Below are positions 928 through 35,064 of a DNA stretch of 42,076 bases, piece by piece. The stretch covers positions 1-42,076 of IMG/VR virus record IMGVR_UViG_3300033808_000078; one strand, given 5' to 3'. A model generated the notes under the pieces. That model did not search any database. It was not told where the DNA came from and saw only the letters and a list, made by a program, of their open reading frames with translations. This DNA is from a virus (Duplodnaviria; Caudoviricetes). Each line of letters opens with the position of its first letter. The stretch's first letter is position 1. Position numbers and translations under genes: made by a program.

Positions 928-1461
928 ATGCCAGCGGACAAAGCAGTGGCTGAAGCTATAACGAAAATGATCGACAAGCCCTACTATCTCGGAGACGAGT
1001 CGAAAGGGCTTGATTGCCTCAACTCGCTAAAGAACTTTTACGAGGATTGTGGCTTCAGGTTCCCGCGCGAATACTGTCAATGGAGTGAAACCAACTATCG
1101 CCAAAAATGGATGGACGACGTTGAGGAGGGTAGGGCCGCGTTCTGGGACTTTCTTCATACACTCGGAACGCGCGTCGAAAAAAATTACATTATTCGTGGC
1201 GACCTTCTGATTTTTCGGAAAGATCCCCCCTTGGAGTCGATCAAGGATGCGCGGGTGATTTCAGCTCTCAATTCCGTTCTCGATATTATGCCCTTTATGA
1301 AAAAATTCATCCGGAACGTTATCGCAGGGAAGCAGATTTTAACTTTCCCTGGGATCTATACGGGCAATGGGAACTGTTTCATGGTTTTCGACAGGGGGGC
1401 AAGGCAGGTCCCTCTCAGGCTCTTCGAAAAGTATCTCGTCGAGGCGCGGAGGCTAATTTGA
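928..1461 (+). CDS. NlpC/P60-fold tail-tip protein (gpK-like), catalytic His apparently lost
   Basis: KPYYLG..GLDC..RGDLLIF..PGIYTGNG; located between L-like and J-like genes. Confidence 0.7.
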   Translation: MPADKAVAEAITKMIDKPYYLGDESKGLDCLNSLKNFYEDCGFRFPREYCQWSETNYRQKWMDDVEEGRAAFWDFLHTLGTRVEKNYIIRGDLLIFRKDPPLESIKDARVISALNSVLDIMPFMKKFIRNVIAGKQILTFPGIYTGNGNCFMVFDRGARQVPLRLFEKYLVEARRLI

Positions 1462-2105
1462 GCCGAAAGATCATCGATATGTCCCTTGAAACAAATTTTG
1501 GAATCCGCCAGCGGCGCAGGCCTCTGATTCCTCTCTATCGGCCAAACGATGTCATCTCGGGACTCACGGCAATTGTCTCAGCAGTGATAGGTGCAATATC
1601 AGGAACTTCAGCTGCTGCCGTCTCGGGTGTCATCATAGGAGGTGTGCTTATTTCCTCGACGGCCATCGCCTATGGCGTCGTCATTGCCGCAGTGATCGGC
1701 CTGACCGTCTGGAGCATGACCGCAGGCGGTAAGAGCGGATCATCGTCCGGCGGTGCCCTGGGTCTGGGGGCGGGCACCCATGCTATCGAGCAGAATGGGC
1801 AACTCGTCAACACGAGGCAGAGTTCCAAGGTGCTCCTTGTTGTCTATGGAATCTACAGGGTGGGCGGAAACTGGGTATTCTCTAGGCCTTCGTCCAGTAA
1901 CAACAATATTCTAAATGCAGTGATCACTTGGGGCGAAGGCGACATCGAGGGGTTGGCACCCGCGATTGATTTTACACCGCTTTACTCCGGAAACGCTCTA
2001 AATGATATTCACACGGGTGGGGCGTATGTTCCTAGTGATAGCTGTAGCTGCTATGGGCAATATGGACGCACGGCTTGCCAGACTTGCGATGTGGCGCACT
2101 ATTAA
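1458..2105 (+). CDS. Tail tip gpJ-like protein, N-terminal part, ending in a Cys-rich segment
   Basis: Hydrophobic Gly/Ala N-terminus, LLVVYGIYRVGGN..WGEGDIEG motif typical of the gpI/J N-region. Confidence 0.75.
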   Translation: MSRKIIDMSLETNFGIRQRRRPLIPLYRPNDVISGLTAIVSAVIGAISGTSAAAVSGVIIGGVLISSTAIAYGVVIAAVIGLTVWSMTAGGKSGSSSGGALGLGAGTHAIEQNGQLVNTRQSSKVLLVVYGIYRVGGNWVFSRPSSSNNNILNAVITWGEGDIEGLAPAIDFTPLYSGNALNDIHTGGAYVPSDSCSCYGQYGRTACQTCDVAHY

Positions 2106-2123
2106 GGAGGCTATGAACGAATA

Positions 2124-3440
2124 ATGGGTTGCGATACCTGCACTACTTATTGCCTCGATTATCCTCCTCCGCCCCCGCCTTGCTCCGTTTGCGACATGGC
2201 GTGCAACGGATACAGTTGCACCTGCGACGGCCCTTGTTATGGTTACTCAACGTCGACGAAGTATCGCGTTCAAATTGATGCGACTGGAACTCCTGACACA
2301 TTTAAATGGTCCAAGGATGGAGGGAACACGTGGAGCGCGACGGGCGTAGTGATTACCGGCGGATGGCAGACCTTGAACAATGGCGTCCAGATAAGCTTCG
2401 ATTCGACCACTGGTCACGCGCTCTCCGATTATTGGGATTTTTGGGCGGGCGACGGCGTCTGGGCAGGCGAAAGGCTAATATATTACTACAAGAATTATGG
2501 CGGCAATGATCTTATCTACCATTCCCTTCATCCCGGTACAGCCGGCCAAACGGTCGATTCAGCCCTCCAAGCGGAAGTTCCCGAATGGAATGAGGTAATG
2601 CCATACACGGCCTATTCCTATTTTCGGCTCACCTACGATGCGAATGCCTGGCAGGGAATCCCCGATTTTACGGCCCTCCTTAAAGGCAAGAAGCTCTACG
2701 ATCCAAGGAACGGCATGACGGCCTTCAGCCGCAACCCTGCGCTTGTCTGGCTTGATTTCTTGACGTCCGTTCGCTATGGGCTGGGTGTCCCGATCAGCAC
2801 TGTCAATTTGCAGAGCGTCATGAGCGCGGCGAATTGGTGTGATGCTAATAATTATTTTTTTGACGGTGCGATCATGGACAGGCAGGCCTTCATCGACAAC
2901 TTCGAAGAGCTGATGATGAACTTTCGGGCCTTCACCGTTTATAGCGAAGGAATCTATTATCTGAAGATCTTCACTTACGATGCCCCAGTGATGGCGCTTA
3001 CCGCTAGCGATATAGAAATATCTCCGGAATCGTTTACGATTAATAAAGCGGGGATTCCCGACACGCCCAATGCGGCCAAGGTGACTTTCACGGACGCCTC
3101 GAATAACTACACGGCCCAATATACTCAGGCGCAGGACCTGACCCAGATCGGTTACGATGCAGATCCAAGAGTTAAAGAGGTACTTCTAAAGGGGACGACG
3201 TCGCTGGCTCAGGCGGCTAGCCTCGCAAAGTATTGCTTGCTGCGCAATGAATTCAATACCGAATATGTACTCGTGGCTCATCCGCGATGCTATGTGCTCG
3301 AGCCTGGAGACATGATAACCGTGACGCATGAATTTCCAAACTGGAACAATAAGCTGGTCAGAGTCAAAGAGGTAACCTATCCCGCTTCTGGGATGATCAC
3401 CTTAACCTTAATGGACGAGGACTCTTCGATCTATGCCTGA
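2124..3440 (+). CDS. Tail tip gpJ-like protein, second part, starting with Cys-rich repeats
   Basis: LKGKKLYDPR..SRNPALVWLDFLTSVRYGLG, AANWCD, LEPGDMITVTH; AAGGAGG at 2104-2110; same frame as 1458-2105. Confidence 0.85.
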   Translation: MGCDTCTTYCLDYPPPPPPCSVCDMACNGYSCTCDGPCYGYSTSTKYRVQIDATGTPDTFKWSKDGGNTWSATGVVITGGWQTLNNGVQISFDSTTGHALSDYWDFWAGDGVWAGERLIYYYKNYGGNDLIYHSLHPGTAGQTVDSALQAEVPEWNEVMPYTAYSYFRLTYDANAWQGIPDFTALLKGKKLYDPRNGMTAFSRNPALVWLDFLTSVRYGLGVPISTVNLQSVMSAANWCDANNYFFDGAIMDRQAFIDNFEELMMNFRAFTVYSEGIYYLKIFTYDAPVMALTASDIEISPESFTINKAGIPDTPNAAKVTFTDASNNYTAQYTQAQDLTQIGYDADPRVKEVLLKGTTSLAQAASLAKYCLLRNEFNTEYVLVAHPRCYVLEPGDMITVTHEFPNWNNKLVRVKEVTYPASGMITLTLMDEDSSIYA

Positions 3441-4173
3441 TATCGAAGGAATTTCCGACAAGACGCCAAGAAAAGCGCGAAGATTTTTCGATCGATTTCT
3501 CCTTAAGCCACTGAGGTTCGGCCAGTTTGATTTAATGGATTTTCACGACACGCCCTCGGAGGTCAGGGAAGCCGTAGCCCAAATCGTCGAAAGTGATCCA
3601 AGCCTGCCGAGCCAAAGTACCTACCATGTCGATATTGGGACTTCTATGCGCCTCCGTTTCAGGCTCTTCGTGCTTAAAGACGGCAATCCGATGATGAGGG
3701 TCTCCTATGATGAGCTGACCGGAGGCCCCTGGGGCTACGGATTAGGAGACTTCAAGGTCATGCGCTACGTTTTTCCGGAATTTCGCGGGGCGGCAATAGT
3801 CGGCCTCGCAGACTGCGTCATTAAATACTTGGGGATGAAGGCCGGCGTCTTTAAACGGCTTTACGGATTCTACAAGGTCGCCGAAGGCACAGTCGACTCA
3901 GCCGTGTGGAGTTTGGTCTCGGATCTCACGGCAGGCAATCTTTGCGCACCCGCGCACTTCCTGGATGGCCAACCAGGTTCCGCTCAGATTAGAAACCTGA
4001 CCTATGTTCGGACGGTCGCTACGGAGAAGGGATCCTTCGTGATCTTCGAAAGCAGGGCTGAGGACTTGGATCAGTTCACCCAATATCTGCGGATGACGCC
4101 CCTGGCCGATCATATCGATGAGCTGGACAATGTGGCCGATACAATGATCAAGGCCAGGATAGGAGCCACATGA
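3433..4173 (+). CDS. Hypothetical protein, possible GNAT-fold acyltransferase
   Basis: YVFPEFRG resembles GNAT motif A (VxPxxRGxG); coupled to the upstream gene. Confidence 0.45.
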   Translation: MPDIEGISDKTPRKARRFFDRFLLKPLRFGQFDLMDFHDTPSEVREAVAQIVESDPSLPSQSTYHVDIGTSMRLRFRLFVLKDGNPMMRVSYDELTGGPWGYGLGDFKVMRYVFPEFRGAAIVGLADCVIKYLGMKAGVFKRLYGFYKVAEGTVDSAVWSLVSDLTAGNLCAPAHFLDGQPGSAQIRNLTYVRTVATEKGSFVIFESRAEDLDQFTQYLRMTPLADHIDELDNVADTMIKARIGAT

Positions 4174-4343
4174 CTGGATCCATTGAGGATCGAATTTTGA
4201 AATGGCTCCAAGCACGCCAAAATCAAAGGCGCTATGCCATCAAAGAAGTCGGCTACCAAGATTGTATGAATCTGCTCCACGTGCTTAGCGAGAGGATGAA
4301 AAGAATGGAAAAGAAGATGAAGCGATTGGCGAAGGCGGCTTGA
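4170..4343 (+). CDS. 57-aa hypothetical protein with C-terminal coiled coil (not in ORF track)
   Basis: AGGAG RBS, ATGA overlap; MTGSIEDRILKW...LLHVLSERMKRMEKKMKRLAKAA. Confidence 0.6.
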   Translation: MTGSIEDRILKWLQARQNQRRYAIKEVGYQDCMNLLHVLSERMKRMEKKMKRLAKAA

Positions 4344-4345
4344 CT

Positions 4346-5563
4346 ATGCTGCACCCAATCCTATATGCGACGCTTAACCTGACCCGAAACTGCAATCTCG
4401 CTTGTTCCTATTGCTTCAATTGGGGTAAAGGCAAGGGGCGAATGAATCTTGACACTGGAAAGAGATCGATCGACTTTCTTCTCAGGAACGCCCGTGAGGC
4501 CGACGAGATCTCTCTTCGCGGAAAAGGACGCCAGGTTGAATTACAGTTTTGGGGAGGGGAGCCACTGATTGAGTGGCCTCTGCTGAAGGACCTCGTGCAT
4601 TACGCTAAAAAAGCAAGCAAAGAGATTCCGGTTCGCTTCGGCGGCACGACCAATGGGACGCTTTTCACGCCGGATAAATTTACCTTCCTCAAAGAAAACC
4701 AGATCCATTTCGTCATCTCTTTCGACGGGACCCCGCAATCCCATGATACGCATAGGCGTTTCCGCAATGGAGGAGGATCCCACGCGACCATCGCCAGAAA
4801 TATTGAGGCTGGTCTGAAAATCTTCCCAGGCCTTCGGGTCCGGATGTCGCCATTTGCCGAAGGAATTGATCGATTCTATGAGGACGTAGCCTACATCATC
4901 GCCCTGGGGATTAGGCAGCTCATGTTTAGTCCAGTCTATGAATCTGGATGGACCGCAGAACGTTGGCAGACTTTCGACGCCCAGTGCCAGCAAGTCACGG
5001 ACCTTCTCCTGGCGCAGAGAGGCAAAGGCGATCCAGTTGAGATCGAGCACTACAAGAGCTATGCGAAATCAGATTCTTCACACTGGCCATGCGGCGCAGG
5101 TCGGACGTTTGTTGGAATCGATGTTGATGGATCCATTTATCCTTGCCATCGGTTTATAAAATTCAACGATGCGCGTCCATGGCATCTTCGGCCTACCTCA
5201 ATCGGCCATATAGATTTTGGGATCACGAATCCAGAATTTCGGAAAAGCTTTATTGATCGCAGGCCGACGAAATGCAACACATGCGGGTACGATAAGATCA
5301 CTCCTTGTCACGGCGGCTGCTACGCGGTGAATTACGACCTGACCGGCCATATCGCCACGCCGCCGGAGGTCCTTTGTAGATCGGTCGAGATCCAGTCGAC
5401 GATCTCACGGTCCTATCGTGAAAAATTTGGTCCAAAGGGATTTCCAGAAGCGGTCCACGTGCCGCCGACAAAACCCTCCGCATCAGGGATCATGGCCGTG
5501 GTCAAGCAAATGGAGGCCAGGATATCGGCGCTCGATAAGGTTCTCTCTCATGATGCGAATTAA
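4346..5563 (+). CDS. Radical SAM/SPASM-domain protein (anSME / thioether peptide maturase-like)
   Basis: CNLACSYC (CxxxCxxC), FWGGEPL, TTNGTL, ISFDG; SPASM CGAG..DGSIYPCHRF..CNTC..CHGGC..C. Confidence 0.95.
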   Translation: MLHPILYATLNLTRNCNLACSYCFNWGKGKGRMNLDTGKRSIDFLLRNAREADEISLRGKGRQVELQFWGGEPLIEWPLLKDLVHYAKKASKEIPVRFGGTTNGTLFTPDKFTFLKENQIHFVISFDGTPQSHDTHRRFRNGGGSHATIARNIEAGLKIFPGLRVRMSPFAEGIDRFYEDVAYIIALGIRQLMFSPVYESGWTAERWQTFDAQCQQVTDLLLAQRGKGDPVEIEHYKSYAKSDSSHWPCGAGRTFVGIDVDGSIYPCHRFIKFNDARPWHLRPTSIGHIDFGITNPEFRKSFIDRRPTKCNTCGYDKITPCHGGCYAVNYDLTGHIATPPEVLCRSVEIQSTISRSYREKFGPKGFPEAVHVPPTKPSASGIMAVVKQMEARISALDKVLSHDAN

Positions 5564-5577
5564 AAAAAGGATGGGGG

Positions 5578-6198
5578 ATGTTTGTTCCGGAAGGGCAAAA
5601 AGAAGCGAGGGGAGGCCGTGCAGCGATTCCGTCGGCTTTTTTCGCGCTCTTGGCCGTTCTCTTTCTCGTGGCGGTCCACTGGAATGACGAAGGAACCCAA
5701 AGACAGTCAGTCTATCAAGAAGCCATTGCCACAGAGGAAAACATACAGAGAGACGAGATGGAGCCAGGGCCCTTTAGAGACTGGACTAGTCACGAAGAAA
5801 GAATTAGGTTCATCAAGGTCGTGATGGCCTTTGAGGGAACGCCCTACAAGGCCGGCGGAAATACGGCGAGCGGGATGGATTGTTCCGGGTTGGTTTACAT
5901 CGCTTACAGAATTTTTGACGTGACGCTTCCCAGGACCGTGGCCCGCCAGTTCTGCATCGGAAGAAAGATCAGGCGCGATGAGCTTGAAGAGGGCGATCTT
6001 GTCTTCTTTAATGGCTTTGAAAAGGCGAACCATGTGGGCATTTACCTCGGCGACGGGAAATTCATCCACGCCTCTTCGACCGCGAAAAAACTCAGGATCG
6101 ATTTTCTCGCCTCGCCATGGCAGTACAAACACTTTCTCGGGGCAGTCCGCATCCGAGAACTGAAAGAGCCGAAAAAAGGCTCAAGAGAGACGAGATAA
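5578..6198 (+). CDS. NlpC/P60 (C40) cell-wall peptidase with N-terminal membrane anchor
   Basis: GTPYKAGG..GMDCSG..GDLVFF..HVGIYLGDGKFIHAS, intact C-H-H triad. Confidence 0.9.
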   Translation: MFVPEGQKEARGGRAAIPSAFFALLAVLFLVAVHWNDEGTQRQSVYQEAIATEENIQRDEMEPGPFRDWTSHEERIRFIKVVMAFEGTPYKAGGNTASGMDCSGLVYIAYRIFDVTLPRTVARQFCIGRKIRRDELEEGDLVFFNGFEKANHVGIYLGDGKFIHASSTAKKLRIDFLASPWQYKHFLGAVRIRELKEPKKGSRETR

Positions 6199-9402: not shown

Positions 9403-9810
9403 TTATTTGCTGGCATTCTCTACTTTTTTGATATCCTGCGCCGACTCTAACAACTGTGGATTCTCGTAAATGTTGCCAAGAACTTCAACTCCAAATTCCT
9501 CATCATCAGATATTATCAAACCAGTACCGCAAGCATCCCAATAATGCTTATTCCATTTAACTTCGCCAATTTTCCCATAGGCATTTGAATTTTTAACAAT
9601 ATCCCCCTCCCAAATCTCTTTGCCATTCTTGTCGTGGAGGCCGGTGAATTGCATAAGTGGCTTGTATTGTGTATTTAACATCAACTGCTTCAGTCTTGCA
9701 TGTTGATTGTCACAACAAGCCCATAGGCCATCCTGTTTCCACAAAAGCGACGTTACGATATACATTTTTTTCTCTCGATCATCCCACGCCCTAAACTTGA
9801 TCTCTCTCAT
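9403..9810 (-). CDS. YopX family protein
   Basis: MREIKFRAWD..LMQFTGLHDKNGKEIWEGDIV..EVLGNIYENPQLL. Confidence 0.92.
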   Translation of the reverse strand: MREIKFRAWDDREKKMYIVTSLLWKQDGLWACCDNQHARLKQLMLNTQYKPLMQFTGLHDKNGKEIWEGDIVKNSNAYGKIGEVKWNKHYWDACGTGLIISDDEEFGVEVLGNIYENPQLLESAQDIKKVENASK

Positions 9811-9827
9811 TCTCCCTCCACCTTCCT
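9807..9827. repeat. 21-bp direct repeat, copy 1 (TCATTCTCCCTCCACCTTCCT)
   Basis: Identical to 10521-10541; equals RBS+ATG on the minus strand. Confidence 0.85.
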
Positions 9828-10520: not shown

Positions 10521-10541
10521 TCATTCTCCCTCCACCTTCCT
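10521..10541. repeat. 21-bp direct repeat, copy 2
   Basis: Identical to 9807-9827. Confidence 0.85.
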
Positions 10542-17449: not shown

Positions 17450-17634
17450 TGCCTTATTTGGCCTGCGATTCATGCCAGAGAAGACTATACAAAGTCGGTG
17501 GCGCTCTGAGGTGCCACTTTACCAAGGCCGTCAGATGCAGTCACTACGTGGGGCCTCACAAGGAGTGCCACGTGAAAATTTACTATGGCCCTGAATATGC
17601 GGACTCGCTGGCCAGAGCGGGGATAAAGAGATGA
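17449..17634 (+). CDS. Small Cys/His-rich protein
   Basis: CDSC..CH..CSH..C; coupled to both neighbours. Confidence 0.5.
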   Translation: MPYLACDSCQRRLYKVGGALRCHFTKAVRCSHYVGPHKECHVKIYYGPEYADSLARAGIKR

Positions 17635-18443
17635 ATGAGCTGATAAAAATTGAAAGTAACCCAAAAGTCCCGAAGATATGGGATTACGAGAAATCCGTCA
17701 AAAAGGTAAAAGGACTCATTTTTAAATGGAGGAATCTGACAGAGGAGCTTTTCGGTGAGCTTTACATTGCGAGGGAGAAGTTGTCGAAGGAAGGCCGTAA
17801 CTGGAACAAAAGTTCCATTGAAAAGACCTGGTCCGACTACTGCGAAGACATCGGGAGTTCGAGGCAGGTGGTCAATCGGTGGCTCGCTCGATACGACCTG
17901 AACCGAAAAACCAAAGAACTACCGCCTCCAAAAGGCGTTAGCCAGGTGATTTATGCAGATCCGCCTTGGGACTATGCGAATAGCGGGCTTGACCAATCGG
18001 CACGAAAGCATTACCAGACTATTCCTACTGTCTATCTTTGCAATCCCGAAGCCTGGCTGAAAATTCCAATTCAGAAAATCATTGGGGACCGTTCCGTTCT
18101 TTTCTTATGGGTGACATATCCTTTTGCAAAAGAAGGGCTGCAGATCTGTGAGGCATGGGGATTCCACTACAAGGCCCAACTTGTTTGGGTAAAAAATACG
18201 ACCACCGGAATGGGTTGGTTTGTTACGCCGAAACACGAACTGCTTTATATTGCCGTCCGCGGGCAAGAACTTCACCCTGCCATCAAGCCAGAGTCTGTAT
18301 TTTACTTTGCGACACATGGCCATTCGAGGAAACCACAAGAAGTATATGAAATGATTGAATCCATGTATACGGGGCCTTACATAGAGCTTTTCGCACGCCA
18401 AAAGAGAGAGAATTGGCAATCATGGGGCGATGGACTCGATTAA
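17631..18443 (+). CDS. MT-A70 family adenine methyltransferase
   Basis: VIYADPPW..LFLWVT..HELLY..HSRKP..IELFAR..WGD. Confidence 0.92.
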   Translation: MNELIKIESNPKVPKIWDYEKSVKKVKGLIFKWRNLTEELFGELYIAREKLSKEGRNWNKSSIEKTWSDYCEDIGSSRQVVNRWLARYDLNRKTKELPPPKGVSQVIYADPPWDYANSGLDQSARKHYQTIPTVYLCNPEAWLKIPIQKIIGDRSVLFLWVTYPFAKEGLQICEAWGFHYKAQLVWVKNTTTGMGWFVTPKHELLYIAVRGQELHPAIKPESVFYFATHGHSRKPQEVYEMIESMYTGPYIELFARQKRENWQSWGDGLD

Positions 18444-33341: not shown

Positions 33342-33617
33342 GTGGGGCCGAAGATAGTCACGGTCGACGACCTTCGTCCGAGGGTCCAGCACCAGAGAAA
33401 CCCTCACGGCGGGATCATGCTTGATGGCCAGCATGTCGCAGACACGTTGATGTGCTGCCATTGCGGAAAGATCTGGATCCCCATCAGGGGTTCGGGGATG
33501 ACGCGGGGTTTTTGCCTAAAGTGTATGGGAGTGACTTGCTCCCCTGCATGTCAGGAAAATTGTCTTCCGTTCGAGAAAAGAATCGATATGTCCGAGAAAG
33601 GGCTGATAGAGTTGTGA
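33342..33617 (+). CDS. Cys-rich small protein
   Basis: TLMCCHC..GFCLKC..C..C..CLPFEK. Confidence 0.65.
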   Translation: MGPKIVTVDDLRPRVQHQRNPHGGIMLDGQHVADTLMCCHCGKIWIPIRGSGMTRGFCLKCMGVTCSPACQENCLPFEKRIDMSEKGLIEL

Positions 33618-33699: not shown

Positions 33700-35064
33700 A
33701 TGCCAAAACGCTGGCAATACCAAATCCAGGCCCAGGTTCCTCCAACCAAAGGCCCGAATAGCTGGGAGACCGTCCAACTAGACAAGTGGTTTTTTGACCA
33801 CTCGCCCGTCAGAAGAGTGATCACCGGCCTCAGTGCCGCGATTCTGGCGGGCTCTCTTTTCCTCGTTCCTCCGACGCAGGGATCTACCTCCTGGAAGGAA
33901 CAAAGCGACAAGTTCGGCTGGAAATCATACCATGTTGATTACCATTACAAGAAGCCTTCTCTACCGGCGGCCATCCATACGACGTACTTGTCCCATGTCC
34001 CAGCGGCAGATGGGGCAAGCTCATGGAAAGACCAGAGTTTTAGTTTCGGCTGGAAAACTTTCTACATCGATTACCATTACCAGAGGCCGAAACAGCCGGC
34101 TTCGATTCCGCCGACATTCTTTGCCGAGGTTCCCCCCGCCTCCGGCGCGAGTTCATGGAAGGATCAGAGCTTTCAATTTAACTGGCGGCCCGTCCAGCCG
34201 GATTACATCTACCGAAGGCCGCCGATCCCACAATCCGACATCGCCTTCGTCTATGCTCCGCCGGTTACAGTTGTCTACTATTTAGACAAATGGAAACCGG
34301 TCTACGAGGACTTCTACGTTAAAAAACCATCCCTGCTTGTGGCCATTCAAACGACCCACTATGTCGAGGTCCCACCGACCTCTGGCGGAAATTCCTGGGC
34401 AGAGCAGAGTTTCAAATTTAACTGGCGGCCCATCTATCCTGATTTCTTCCCACGAAAACTCATCATTCCGCAATCGGAAGCCCCATTCATTCCCTATATC
34501 ATCTATCCGGATTCATGGCGGCCATCCTATCCGGATTTCTTTCCCCGAAGGCCAATTTATCCTCCGTCGGAACTTGCATTCGTGGCGAGGGAGCTTGTCT
34601 ATGTCGACAAATGGCTACCGAGGTATCCCGATCGTTTCGTTCCTTCCACTCGCTTCCAGCCGCCCTTAATCTGGACGCCCTATGTGGCGAAGAAGATTAT
34701 CACCGTTGACATGTGGCTTCCAACTTATCCAGACAGGATCATCAGGCCCCGCTTGCCTCTCCTGGCGGAGTCACCGCAGTTCGTAATCGTGCCCGCCCCA
34801 TGGTATCCGAAGATTTTTGTTCCCGATGCCAGAATGAATCGGCGAAGCGACTTTCAGTTTGACGAAATTTTTCAACCCCTGATTCTGCCAGCGGGGCTCG
34901 GTGAAGCCGACCTGGGCCTTGGACCGCTTGGCGGGAATTATATTCAATACGTAGGGGCTAGACTGTCCGCGCGGCCATCTGATTTTGAATTTTCACAGGA
35001 GCCCATTCAGGCTAAATTCACAAATCGGCCCGCACCCTTTGTCATCGAAAGGAAGAAGACGTGA
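33700..35064 (+). CDS. Pro/aromatic-rich repeat protein
   Basis: About 44-aa VPPxxGxxSWKxQSFxFxW repeats plus WxPxYPD repeats. Confidence 0.65.
   Translation: MPKRWQYQIQAQVPPTKGPNSWETVQLDKWFFDHSPVRRVITGLSAAILAGSLFLVPPTQGSTSWKEQSDKFGWKSYHVDYHYKKPSLPAAIHTTYLSHVPAADGASSWKDQSFSFGWKTFYIDYHYQRPKQPASIPPTFFAEVPPASGASSWKDQSFQFNWRPVQPDYIYRRPPIPQSDIAFVYAPPVTVVYYLDKWKPVYEDFYVKKPSLLVAIQTTHYVEVPPTSGGNSWAEQSFKFNWRPIYPDFFPRKLIIPQSEAPFIPYIIYPDSWRPSYPDFFPRRPIYPPSELAFVARELVYVDKWLPRYPDRFVPSTRFQPPLIWTPYVAKKIITVDMWLPTYPDRIIRPRLPLLAESPQFVIVPAPWYPKIFVPDARMNRRSDFQFDEIFQPLILPAGLGEADLGLGPLGGNYIQYVGARLSARPSDFEFSQEPIQAKFTNRPAPFVIERKKT

Follow-up and report, generated by a model that had tools for sequence, protein, structure and literature searches.

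Can a phage cross-link a structural protein of its own virion with a radical SAM enzyme? This question is raised by IMG/VR virus record IMGVR_UViG_3300033808_000078 (Duplodnaviria; Caudoviricetes), analysed here over its full length of 42,076 nucleotides (hereafter the window), in which a radical SAM/SPASM enzyme is encoded downstream of a split tail-tip hub gene bearing a tract of Cys codons. A first-pass annotation had proposed that the enzyme modifies this tract in the manner of a peptide made on the ribosome and modified after translation (RiPP). Because relatives of the enzyme almost always accompany such Cys repeats, stapling of the hub Cys appears likely, and with somewhat better than even confidence we favour a model in which a CteB/PapB-like enzyme staples the hub, a predicted virion protein, through Cys-to-Asp/Asn thioether cross-links.

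The link between enzyme and repeats was supported by co-occurrence in both directions, as the first-pass annotation had anticipated. A profile of the enzyme clade returned 28 locus rows of at least 240 bits, which reduced to 23 distinct loci after merging (L004/5/13/14, L094/95, L098/99). Nineteen of the 23 encoded at least two repeat units in a neighbouring open reading frame (ORF), and the record of one more (L024) contained a 39-Cys ORF located 22 kb from the enzyme, giving 20/23; when only loci retrieved by the enzyme query were counted, repeats were present in 14/17. Homologs lacking Cys-rich neighbours, named beforehand as the finding that would speak against the proposal, were limited to two fragments (L015, 15.9 kb and 14% complete; L173, 1.9 kb) and a distant bacterial fusion (L177, 26% identity). 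Viewed from the hub, all seven distinct repeat-bearing hubs had the enzyme no more than 3.7 kb downstream, compared with none of ten repeat-less hubs, only three of which (L101/102, L105 and L106) were long enough to count. L105 and L101 run from the tail tip into the lysis genes and have the tail operon in common with the window, with no enzyme; in L105, which shares with the window the tape measure (53%) and downstream genes (66-71%), nothing of the kind stands between tip and lysis genes. A control set of 64 distant tail loci (615 kb) contained no enzyme and one 36-aa two-unit ORF. Among distant enzyme loci the repeat motif was found in 10/65, so either the association is particular to this clade or the distant loci have motifs of their own.

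Within the window the tract occupies positions 2043-2246, where 13 of 68 codons encode Cys against a background of 1.2% across 28 window genes (binomial P 2e-12, or 2e-8 when corrected for all positions). The Cys count and the placement between GGAY and YRVQID, both part of the initial proposal, held; its description as a single insert did not, since an in-frame TAA (2103-2105) leaves four Cys at the end of one ORF and nine in the next. Together the two parts contain two CxxxD, one CxxD and two DxxC sites, in keeping with PapB/CteB-type substrates, which have Cys with an Asp/Glu/Asn/Thr acceptor at a set distance. The absence of a separate short precursor was also borne out: no short ORF with the repeat motif was detected in the 42 kb, where five small Cys-rich ORFs all lack it. 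The 91-aa tail-region ORF at 33342-33617, with 8 Cys in a zinc-finger-like pattern, was tried as a precursor and rejected on its different Cys pattern and lack of a Pfam match.

These observations bear on whether the tract is itself a true peptide precursor that rides on tail genes and is released by cleavage once modified, the product being a small molecule or discarded and the virion left unmodified. Stand-alone repeat ORFs do exist (L016, 97 aa; L017, L022 and L183), the split places the window's tracts at chain ends, and two NlpC/P60 genes lie nearby. We nevertheless judge such a precursor very improbable, as at least six intact hubs carry the tract inside a domain, neither leader nor transporter accompanies it, and its position follows the tail genes.

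Across the loci the repeat has the consensus C-[S/T]-C-[N/D]-x-[T/S/A]-C-Y-G-Y. Anchoring on 137 Cys followed by Asn (101) or Asp (36), a Cys was present at -2 in 110, a further Cys at +4 in 89 and a Tyr at +5 in 94; the window units use Asp where most relatives use Asn. Hosts of the repeat varied from hubs to fibre-like proteins, stand-alone ORFs and, in L099, the hub-attachment protein, while 500-740-aa proteins of 100-kb phages carry 8-23 units. The repeat thus behaves as a portable tag across tail-region proteins. Every examined repeat-tract locus with enough flanking DNA had at least one SPASM enzyme in its record. In fuller cassettes the first enzyme is joined by a gene for an HxGH nucleotidyltransferase-like protein, a GNAT-fold gene and a second SPASM enzyme, which is shorter. 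The HxGH gene was found in eight loci, always with the first enzyme (8/8, seven of which built the HxGH profile), and outside the window the GNAT gene was found in eight loci, always with the second enzyme (8/8, five of which built the GNAT profile). Neither SPASM enzyme is indispensable for repeat loci. Two copies of the first enzyme clade are present per locus at L016:8657-11239 and L023:9899-15110. At L026:12780-14111, on a 205-kb phage contig, a YcaO-family gene, a further RiPP-type tailoring enzyme, follows the enzyme and repeat protein.

The window itself retains the first enzyme and the GNAT gene. Its cassette could therefore be reduced or decaying, the second SPASM enzyme and nucleotidyltransferase having been lost, the GNAT protein orphaned and the tract modified in part or not at all; this gene order equals that of L092 minus the second enzyme, the constant association of GNAT with the second enzyme and the degenerate repeats of the window agree with it, and the nested clade of repeat-less hubs (100/100) indicates that loss happens. 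Decay is nonetheless improbable in our estimation. All ORFs are intact and coupled, the ten cluster Cys of the enzyme are all kept, its short tail is common to three close homologs (57-61%), and L098, L020 and L022 likewise have the first enzyme without partner genes.

The enzyme gene is complete, in agreement with the first-pass annotation. Its CxxxCxxC motif corresponds to C18, C22 and C25 (Pfam Radical_SAM, 59.8 bits), and its SPASM region contains seven Cys (C251, C269, C312, C315, C323, C327 and C346) that align one to one with those of CteB, the closest solved relative (5WGG, E 8e-29); six are invariant or nearly so in 40 homologs. A seven-Cys SPASM domain would leave an open site on auxiliary cluster I (AuxI). 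The top NCBIfam hits are without exception thioether maturases or enzymes predicted to mature Cys peptides: PapB (NF047865, 223 bits against a cut-off of 340; 210 bits for homolog L018), nif11 (176), QhpD (TIGR03906, 145 against 453), the CXXX-repeat system (TIGR04115, 142 against 350), CcpM (142) and SCIFF (140). CrpC (TIGR04463) scored 48.8 against 525. CXXX-repeat targets have Cys at every fourth residue, and the spacings here are mainly 2, 4 and 5-6. NCBIfam target models gave no matches to six repeat proteins. The alignment with CteB starts at residue 11 of the enzyme and residue 100 of CteB; the enzyme begins where the CteB catalytic domain begins and so has no RiPP recognition element (RRE) or other N-terminal leader-binding domain. 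Among 112 scorable of 120 listed homologs, the window's own entry included, 86 have a C-terminal extension with a CxC[Y/N]-type motif like that of the substrate repeat, followed by a coil. Longer enzymes were seen in L020 (554 aa) and P0132, the latter with an intein-splicing Pfam mark.

The initial proposal had left the kind of Cys modification open between thioether formation and oxidation; the former fits the closest relatives and the seven-Cys SPASM domain, and the latter fared poorly. Anaerobic sulfatase maturases (anSMEs) oxidise Cys to formylglycine in a CxPxR substrate and have eight SPASM Cys. The enzyme does show weak anSME matches (TIGR03942, 80 bits against 349; anSME structures, E 2e-7), but CxPxR is absent from the window tract, the SPASM Cys number seven, 85/106 homologs lack an extra upstream Cys, and no sulfatase was found among the genes in family scans, leaving formylglycine formation scarcely credible.

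A more serious alternative is that the enzyme acts on the repeats by other chemistry, linking sulfur to the alpha-carbon or cross-linking or rearranging the conserved Tyr/Gly, with part or all of the Cys coordinating zinc or an iron-sulfur cluster or pairing as disulfides once the cell has lysed. Each unit offers three Cys for one Asn/Asp, the +5 Tyr matches the third Cys in conservation, and the enzyme lies under all family cut-offs. Moreover, five phages also have long Ser-Gly-Tyr repeat proteins, so Gly-Tyr could be a shared target. On the other side, the top family matches are all Cys-directed maturases, with cyclophane-type families reaching at most 60 bits and DynA 95, and the Ser-Gly-Tyr repeat is absent from the window. 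We hold other chemistry to be unlikely. As an observation in its own right, Ser-Gly-Tyr repeat proteins with 62-122 SGYSG matches lie near the cassettes of L020, L023, L024 and L183.

Thioether stapling of the hub has several partial precedents. In the available text of PMC13692751, CrpC is described as installing ranthionine links on the protein CrpA, seven SPASM Cys as leaving an open AuxI site, and similar clusters as occurring in all domains of life; the words 'phage' and 'tail' occur 0 times in its main text and three supplements. The Methanococcus voltae CrpC/CrpA pair resembles the window in placing a seven-auxiliary-Cys SPASM enzyme beside a large tandem-Cys-repeat protein, but is archaeal rather than viral, with an RRE and a leader-like region in CrpA. 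The likeness to the ranthipeptide synthases of PapB/freyrasin and CteB/thermocellin (PMC12373016 and PMC11002830) lies in the best family match, the best solved relative, the aligned SPASM Cys and the two CxxxD sites of the window tract, CxxxD being the native PapB motif; Asn and Asp are known S-C(beta) acceptors (PMC11002830). PapB and CteB differ in having an N-terminal leader-binding region and a short precursor, whereas the substrate here would be a structural protein. QhpD forms Cys-Asp S-C(beta) links in QhpC, a protein retained in the quinohaemoprotein amine dehydrogenase complex (PMC13692751 and PMC11002830, as far as these sources were available), and a target that stays in its complex is what we predict for the hub; QhpD has an RRE and its substrate a leader, and the window contains no Qhp genes. 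A streptococcal Cys-Asn ranthipeptide is described from S. orisratti in PMC11002830. It differs in being a short, quorum-regulated peptide with a single ring. This system reportedly goes by the name NxxcB and an NxxC motif (no confirming paper was found), and N/D-x-x-C, present at 89/137 repeat anchors, has the spacing of that motif. The locus thus appears to work like CrpC, QhpD and PapB yet falls in none of these families. No case of a phage virion substrate for such an enzyme was found in the literature covered, which left out most subscription journals.

We propose the following steps. The Cys repeat would be the enzyme's substrate, which we consider likely. Given this, it is fairly likely that a substrate Cys would occupy the open site on auxiliary cluster I as a 5'-deoxyadenosyl radical abstracts hydrogen from the Asp/Asn beta-carbon, as in PapB, QhpD and CrpC. 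Recognition would be leaderless, perhaps aided by the C-terminal coil of the enzyme and a free copy of that coil, and the hub halves would reassemble through the tract-interrupted beta domain to present a stapled loop on the tail tip. Most likely, in our guess of a structural role, preferred to the receptor binding or defence evasion that the first-pass annotation also named, the staples would stiffen an exposed element for which disulfides are not available in the reducing cytoplasm. Radical SAM thioether stapling has been described in short peptides and in two cellular proteins (QhpC and CrpA); the predicted target here is a core phage tail protein, and if the model is correct, phages mature virions with peptide-antibiotic chemistry. 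An enzyme able to treat internal loops of folded proteins without a leader would also be a useful tool for stapling proteins, and this locus is compact, with one 407-aa enzyme and two short tracts. Relative to known systems, the window contributes a predicted target that is a core hub protein, a hub gene naturally divided at the tract, a copy of the motif within the enzyme clade and two separable enzyme modules.

A number of observations weigh against this model. The chemistry rests on predicted activity: the enzyme scores below every family cut-off, and it lacks both an N-terminal leader-binding domain and the short leader-bearing precursor that would go with an RRE. The window enzyme also lacks, unlike most of its homologs, the C-terminal CxC[Y/N]-type motif, with the coil kept, and the same short tail is seen in the three close homologs noted above. 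Its cassette is without the second SPASM enzyme and HxGH gene of most fuller cassettes, and its repeats are degenerate, with 2 units recognized by a loose pattern. Conservation of Asn/Asp fits a structural or metal-binding repeat too. L015 has the enzyme without repeats within 15.9 kb, and G006 (37.7 kb, estimated complete) encodes a 16-unit repeat ORF, GNAT protein and second SPASM enzyme with the first clade absent, so repeats do not require the window's enzyme clade in particular. As to the hub counts, only 3/10 repeat-less hub loci reach at least 4 kb downstream. Those three belong to the more remote hubs (37-41% identity), and for the nearest ones without repeats (P0004, P0008, P0019 and L096) flanking context is scant or missing. 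Lastly, common ancestry among the loci means that the counts do not represent independent events.

The proposed substrate is identifiable as a siphophage tail-tip hub by its Phage-tail_3 domain in the C-half (47.8 bits; cut-off 23) and by its position after distal-tail, hub-attachment and NlpC/P60 genes. The C-half matches PHROG 31, central tail fibre J, at E 4e-40. The N-half has a hydrophobic N-terminal segment, gpJ-type N-terminal motifs, the first strands of the inserted beta domain and four terminal Cys, matches PHROG 31 at E 2.5e-4 and aligns to the N-terminal third of intact homologs. Siphophage hubs (the N-terminal part of lambda gpJ, T5 pb3, Chi and the gene transfer agent) share Phage-tail_3, PHROG 31 and the upstream order DUF2460, DUF2163-like, NlpC/P60, and were matched in fold by the model of a homolog (E 1e-14 to 1e-9); the window hub differs in being short, without a C-terminal fibre, with an extra beta domain carrying the Cys tract, and in occupying two genes. 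In a model of the intact homolog P0005 the tract formed an unresolved loop between beta strands of the extra domain; the model was poor overall (pTM 0.32) and at the tract (pLDDT ~30) uninformative on its fold, while the remainder matched the tail tips of Chi, lambda, T1, JBD30 and T5 (E 9e-15 to 1e-12). The tract-interrupted beta domain was also observed as a mobile module in many phage proteins (window 2247-2450 and P0025), with nested, repeated copies in P0025 (832 aa).

Features of the hub-enzyme locus in the window.
Feature	Position	Strand	Description
N-half of split tail-tip hub gene	1458..2105	+	215 aa from TTG; alternative start ATG at 1479
Cys tract of N-half	2043..2102	+	Cys codons 2043, 2049, 2076, 2085; one CxxxD site
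Split point	2103..2126	+	TAA overlapping Shine-Dalgarno-like TAAGGAGG, 13 nt spacer, ATG at 2124
C-half of hub gene	2124..3440	+	438 aa: Cys tract, remainder of inserted beta domain, baseplate-hub core
Cys tract of C-half	2130..2246	+	9 Cys, hexaproline spacer, one CxxxD, one CxxD, two DxxC sites
GNAT-fold accessory protein (predicted)	3433..4173	+	246 aa, small unnamed family; model pLDDT 71
Free copy of enzyme-clade C-terminal helix/coil	4170..4343	+	57 aa
Radical SAM/SPASM enzyme	4340..5563	+	complete, 407 aa

Judged from the letters and from relatives, the hub split is natural. A sequencing error or stop read-through at 2103 was considered and rejected as the main explanation, because relatives split in other frames with restart signals; read-through is further countered by TAA terminating many window genes and by the absence of a tRNA gene. 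A second assembly (run X1, depth 22.8), possibly of the same sample and so not independent, had identical letters at the split. Three relatives split at the same place, all with restart signals: L092 in a different frame, with the stop overlapping GAGGAG and an ATG 6 nt on; L098/L099 with an ATGA overlap; and L002 in frame, with GGAGG then GTG and Cys entirely absent. The split-point architecture of the window recurs in L092 and L002. Nineteen close database homologs of the hub comprised seven of full length (five with four Cys units, two with none) and 12 C-halves, three of them starting with M-G-(G)-C or a similar sequence; gene calling may have truncated some of the short entries. A tree was built from 26 hub cores, from which P0022 and L105 were left out by the anchor pattern; in it the window, L092 and L002 fell in one clade (95/84) together with the intact hubs that have no repeats, and L098 lay outside it in an unresolved part. 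Given L002 and this placement, hub splitting needs no Cys tract; Cys repeats were probably lost at least once among hubs.

The position of the split within the tract allows a further reading, a long shot in our view, in which C-x-C-[N/D]-x-x-C-Y serves as a leaderless portable tag and the enzyme joins the N-half end to the C-half start in trans, producing one covalent hub. Two tandem, diverged N-half copies precede a single C-half at L002:3239-4369 and L092:731-1918, and splitting may let the hydrophobic N-terminal part of the hub diversify. At the window's split point, a three-codon mini-ORF (2113-2126) lies just 3' of the Shine-Dalgarno-like site, its stop overlapping the C-half ATG by one base; it could couple translation.

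Coupling of the enzyme to the gpJ-like genes through two ORFs, described in the first-pass annotation, was confirmed by overlapping same-strand ORFs (2124-3440, 3433-4173, 4170-4343 and 4340-5563), the linkers being a GNAT-fold protein and a short coil. By its predicted structure, the ORF at 3433-4173 is a GNAT-fold protein: the listed matches of both fold searches were all GNAT-fold (Foldseek E 3e-7; VIA Z 11.7, root-mean-square deviation 3.1, 163 aligned), with at most 14% identity to solved GNATs. Its family has 59 real members at 50% clustering, with a weak Pfam signal in homologs, and homolog P0197 is fused to another radical SAM-like protein. The 57-aa ORF was the best match (E 4e-4) among 583 window ORFs to a profile of the homolog C-terminus, and L092 has a 52% identical counterpart immediately 5' of the enzyme.

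The window is the whole genome of a temperate siphophage, estimated complete with a 175-nt terminal repeat, in which family scans identified terminase, lambda-type portal, capsid, tape measure, integrase and Bet-like genes. The hub-attachment gene spans the sequence ends as a single 652-aa frame, and since this frame joins both ends, the tail order reads DUF2460, DUF2163-like, NlpC/P60, tail tip, split hub and enzyme genes, predicted lysis genes. A peat metagenome was the only run found to contain this DNA and is possibly its source; no RNA run was listed as containing it. Promoter and terminator scans of the window gave results at or below chance. Among cultured phages the best 47 records were below 60% identity (top rows 24-30%), and a GTDB scan yielded 6 loci (26-38% identity), which pointed to no host. 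When viral contigs were scanned with single sequences of the enzyme and C-half there were no matches; alignment queries were required. Immediately 3' of the enzyme gene, 5578-6198 encodes a second NlpC/P60 protein, for which a hydrophobic anchor is predicted at the N terminus. Elsewhere, a repetitive 454-aa ORF rich in Pro, Trp and Tyr, with neither Cys nor a family match, lies among the tail genes (33700-35064), an exact 21-nt direct repeat stands at gene ends in the early region (9807-9827 and 10521-10541), and 17631-18443 encodes an MT-A70 methyltransferase.

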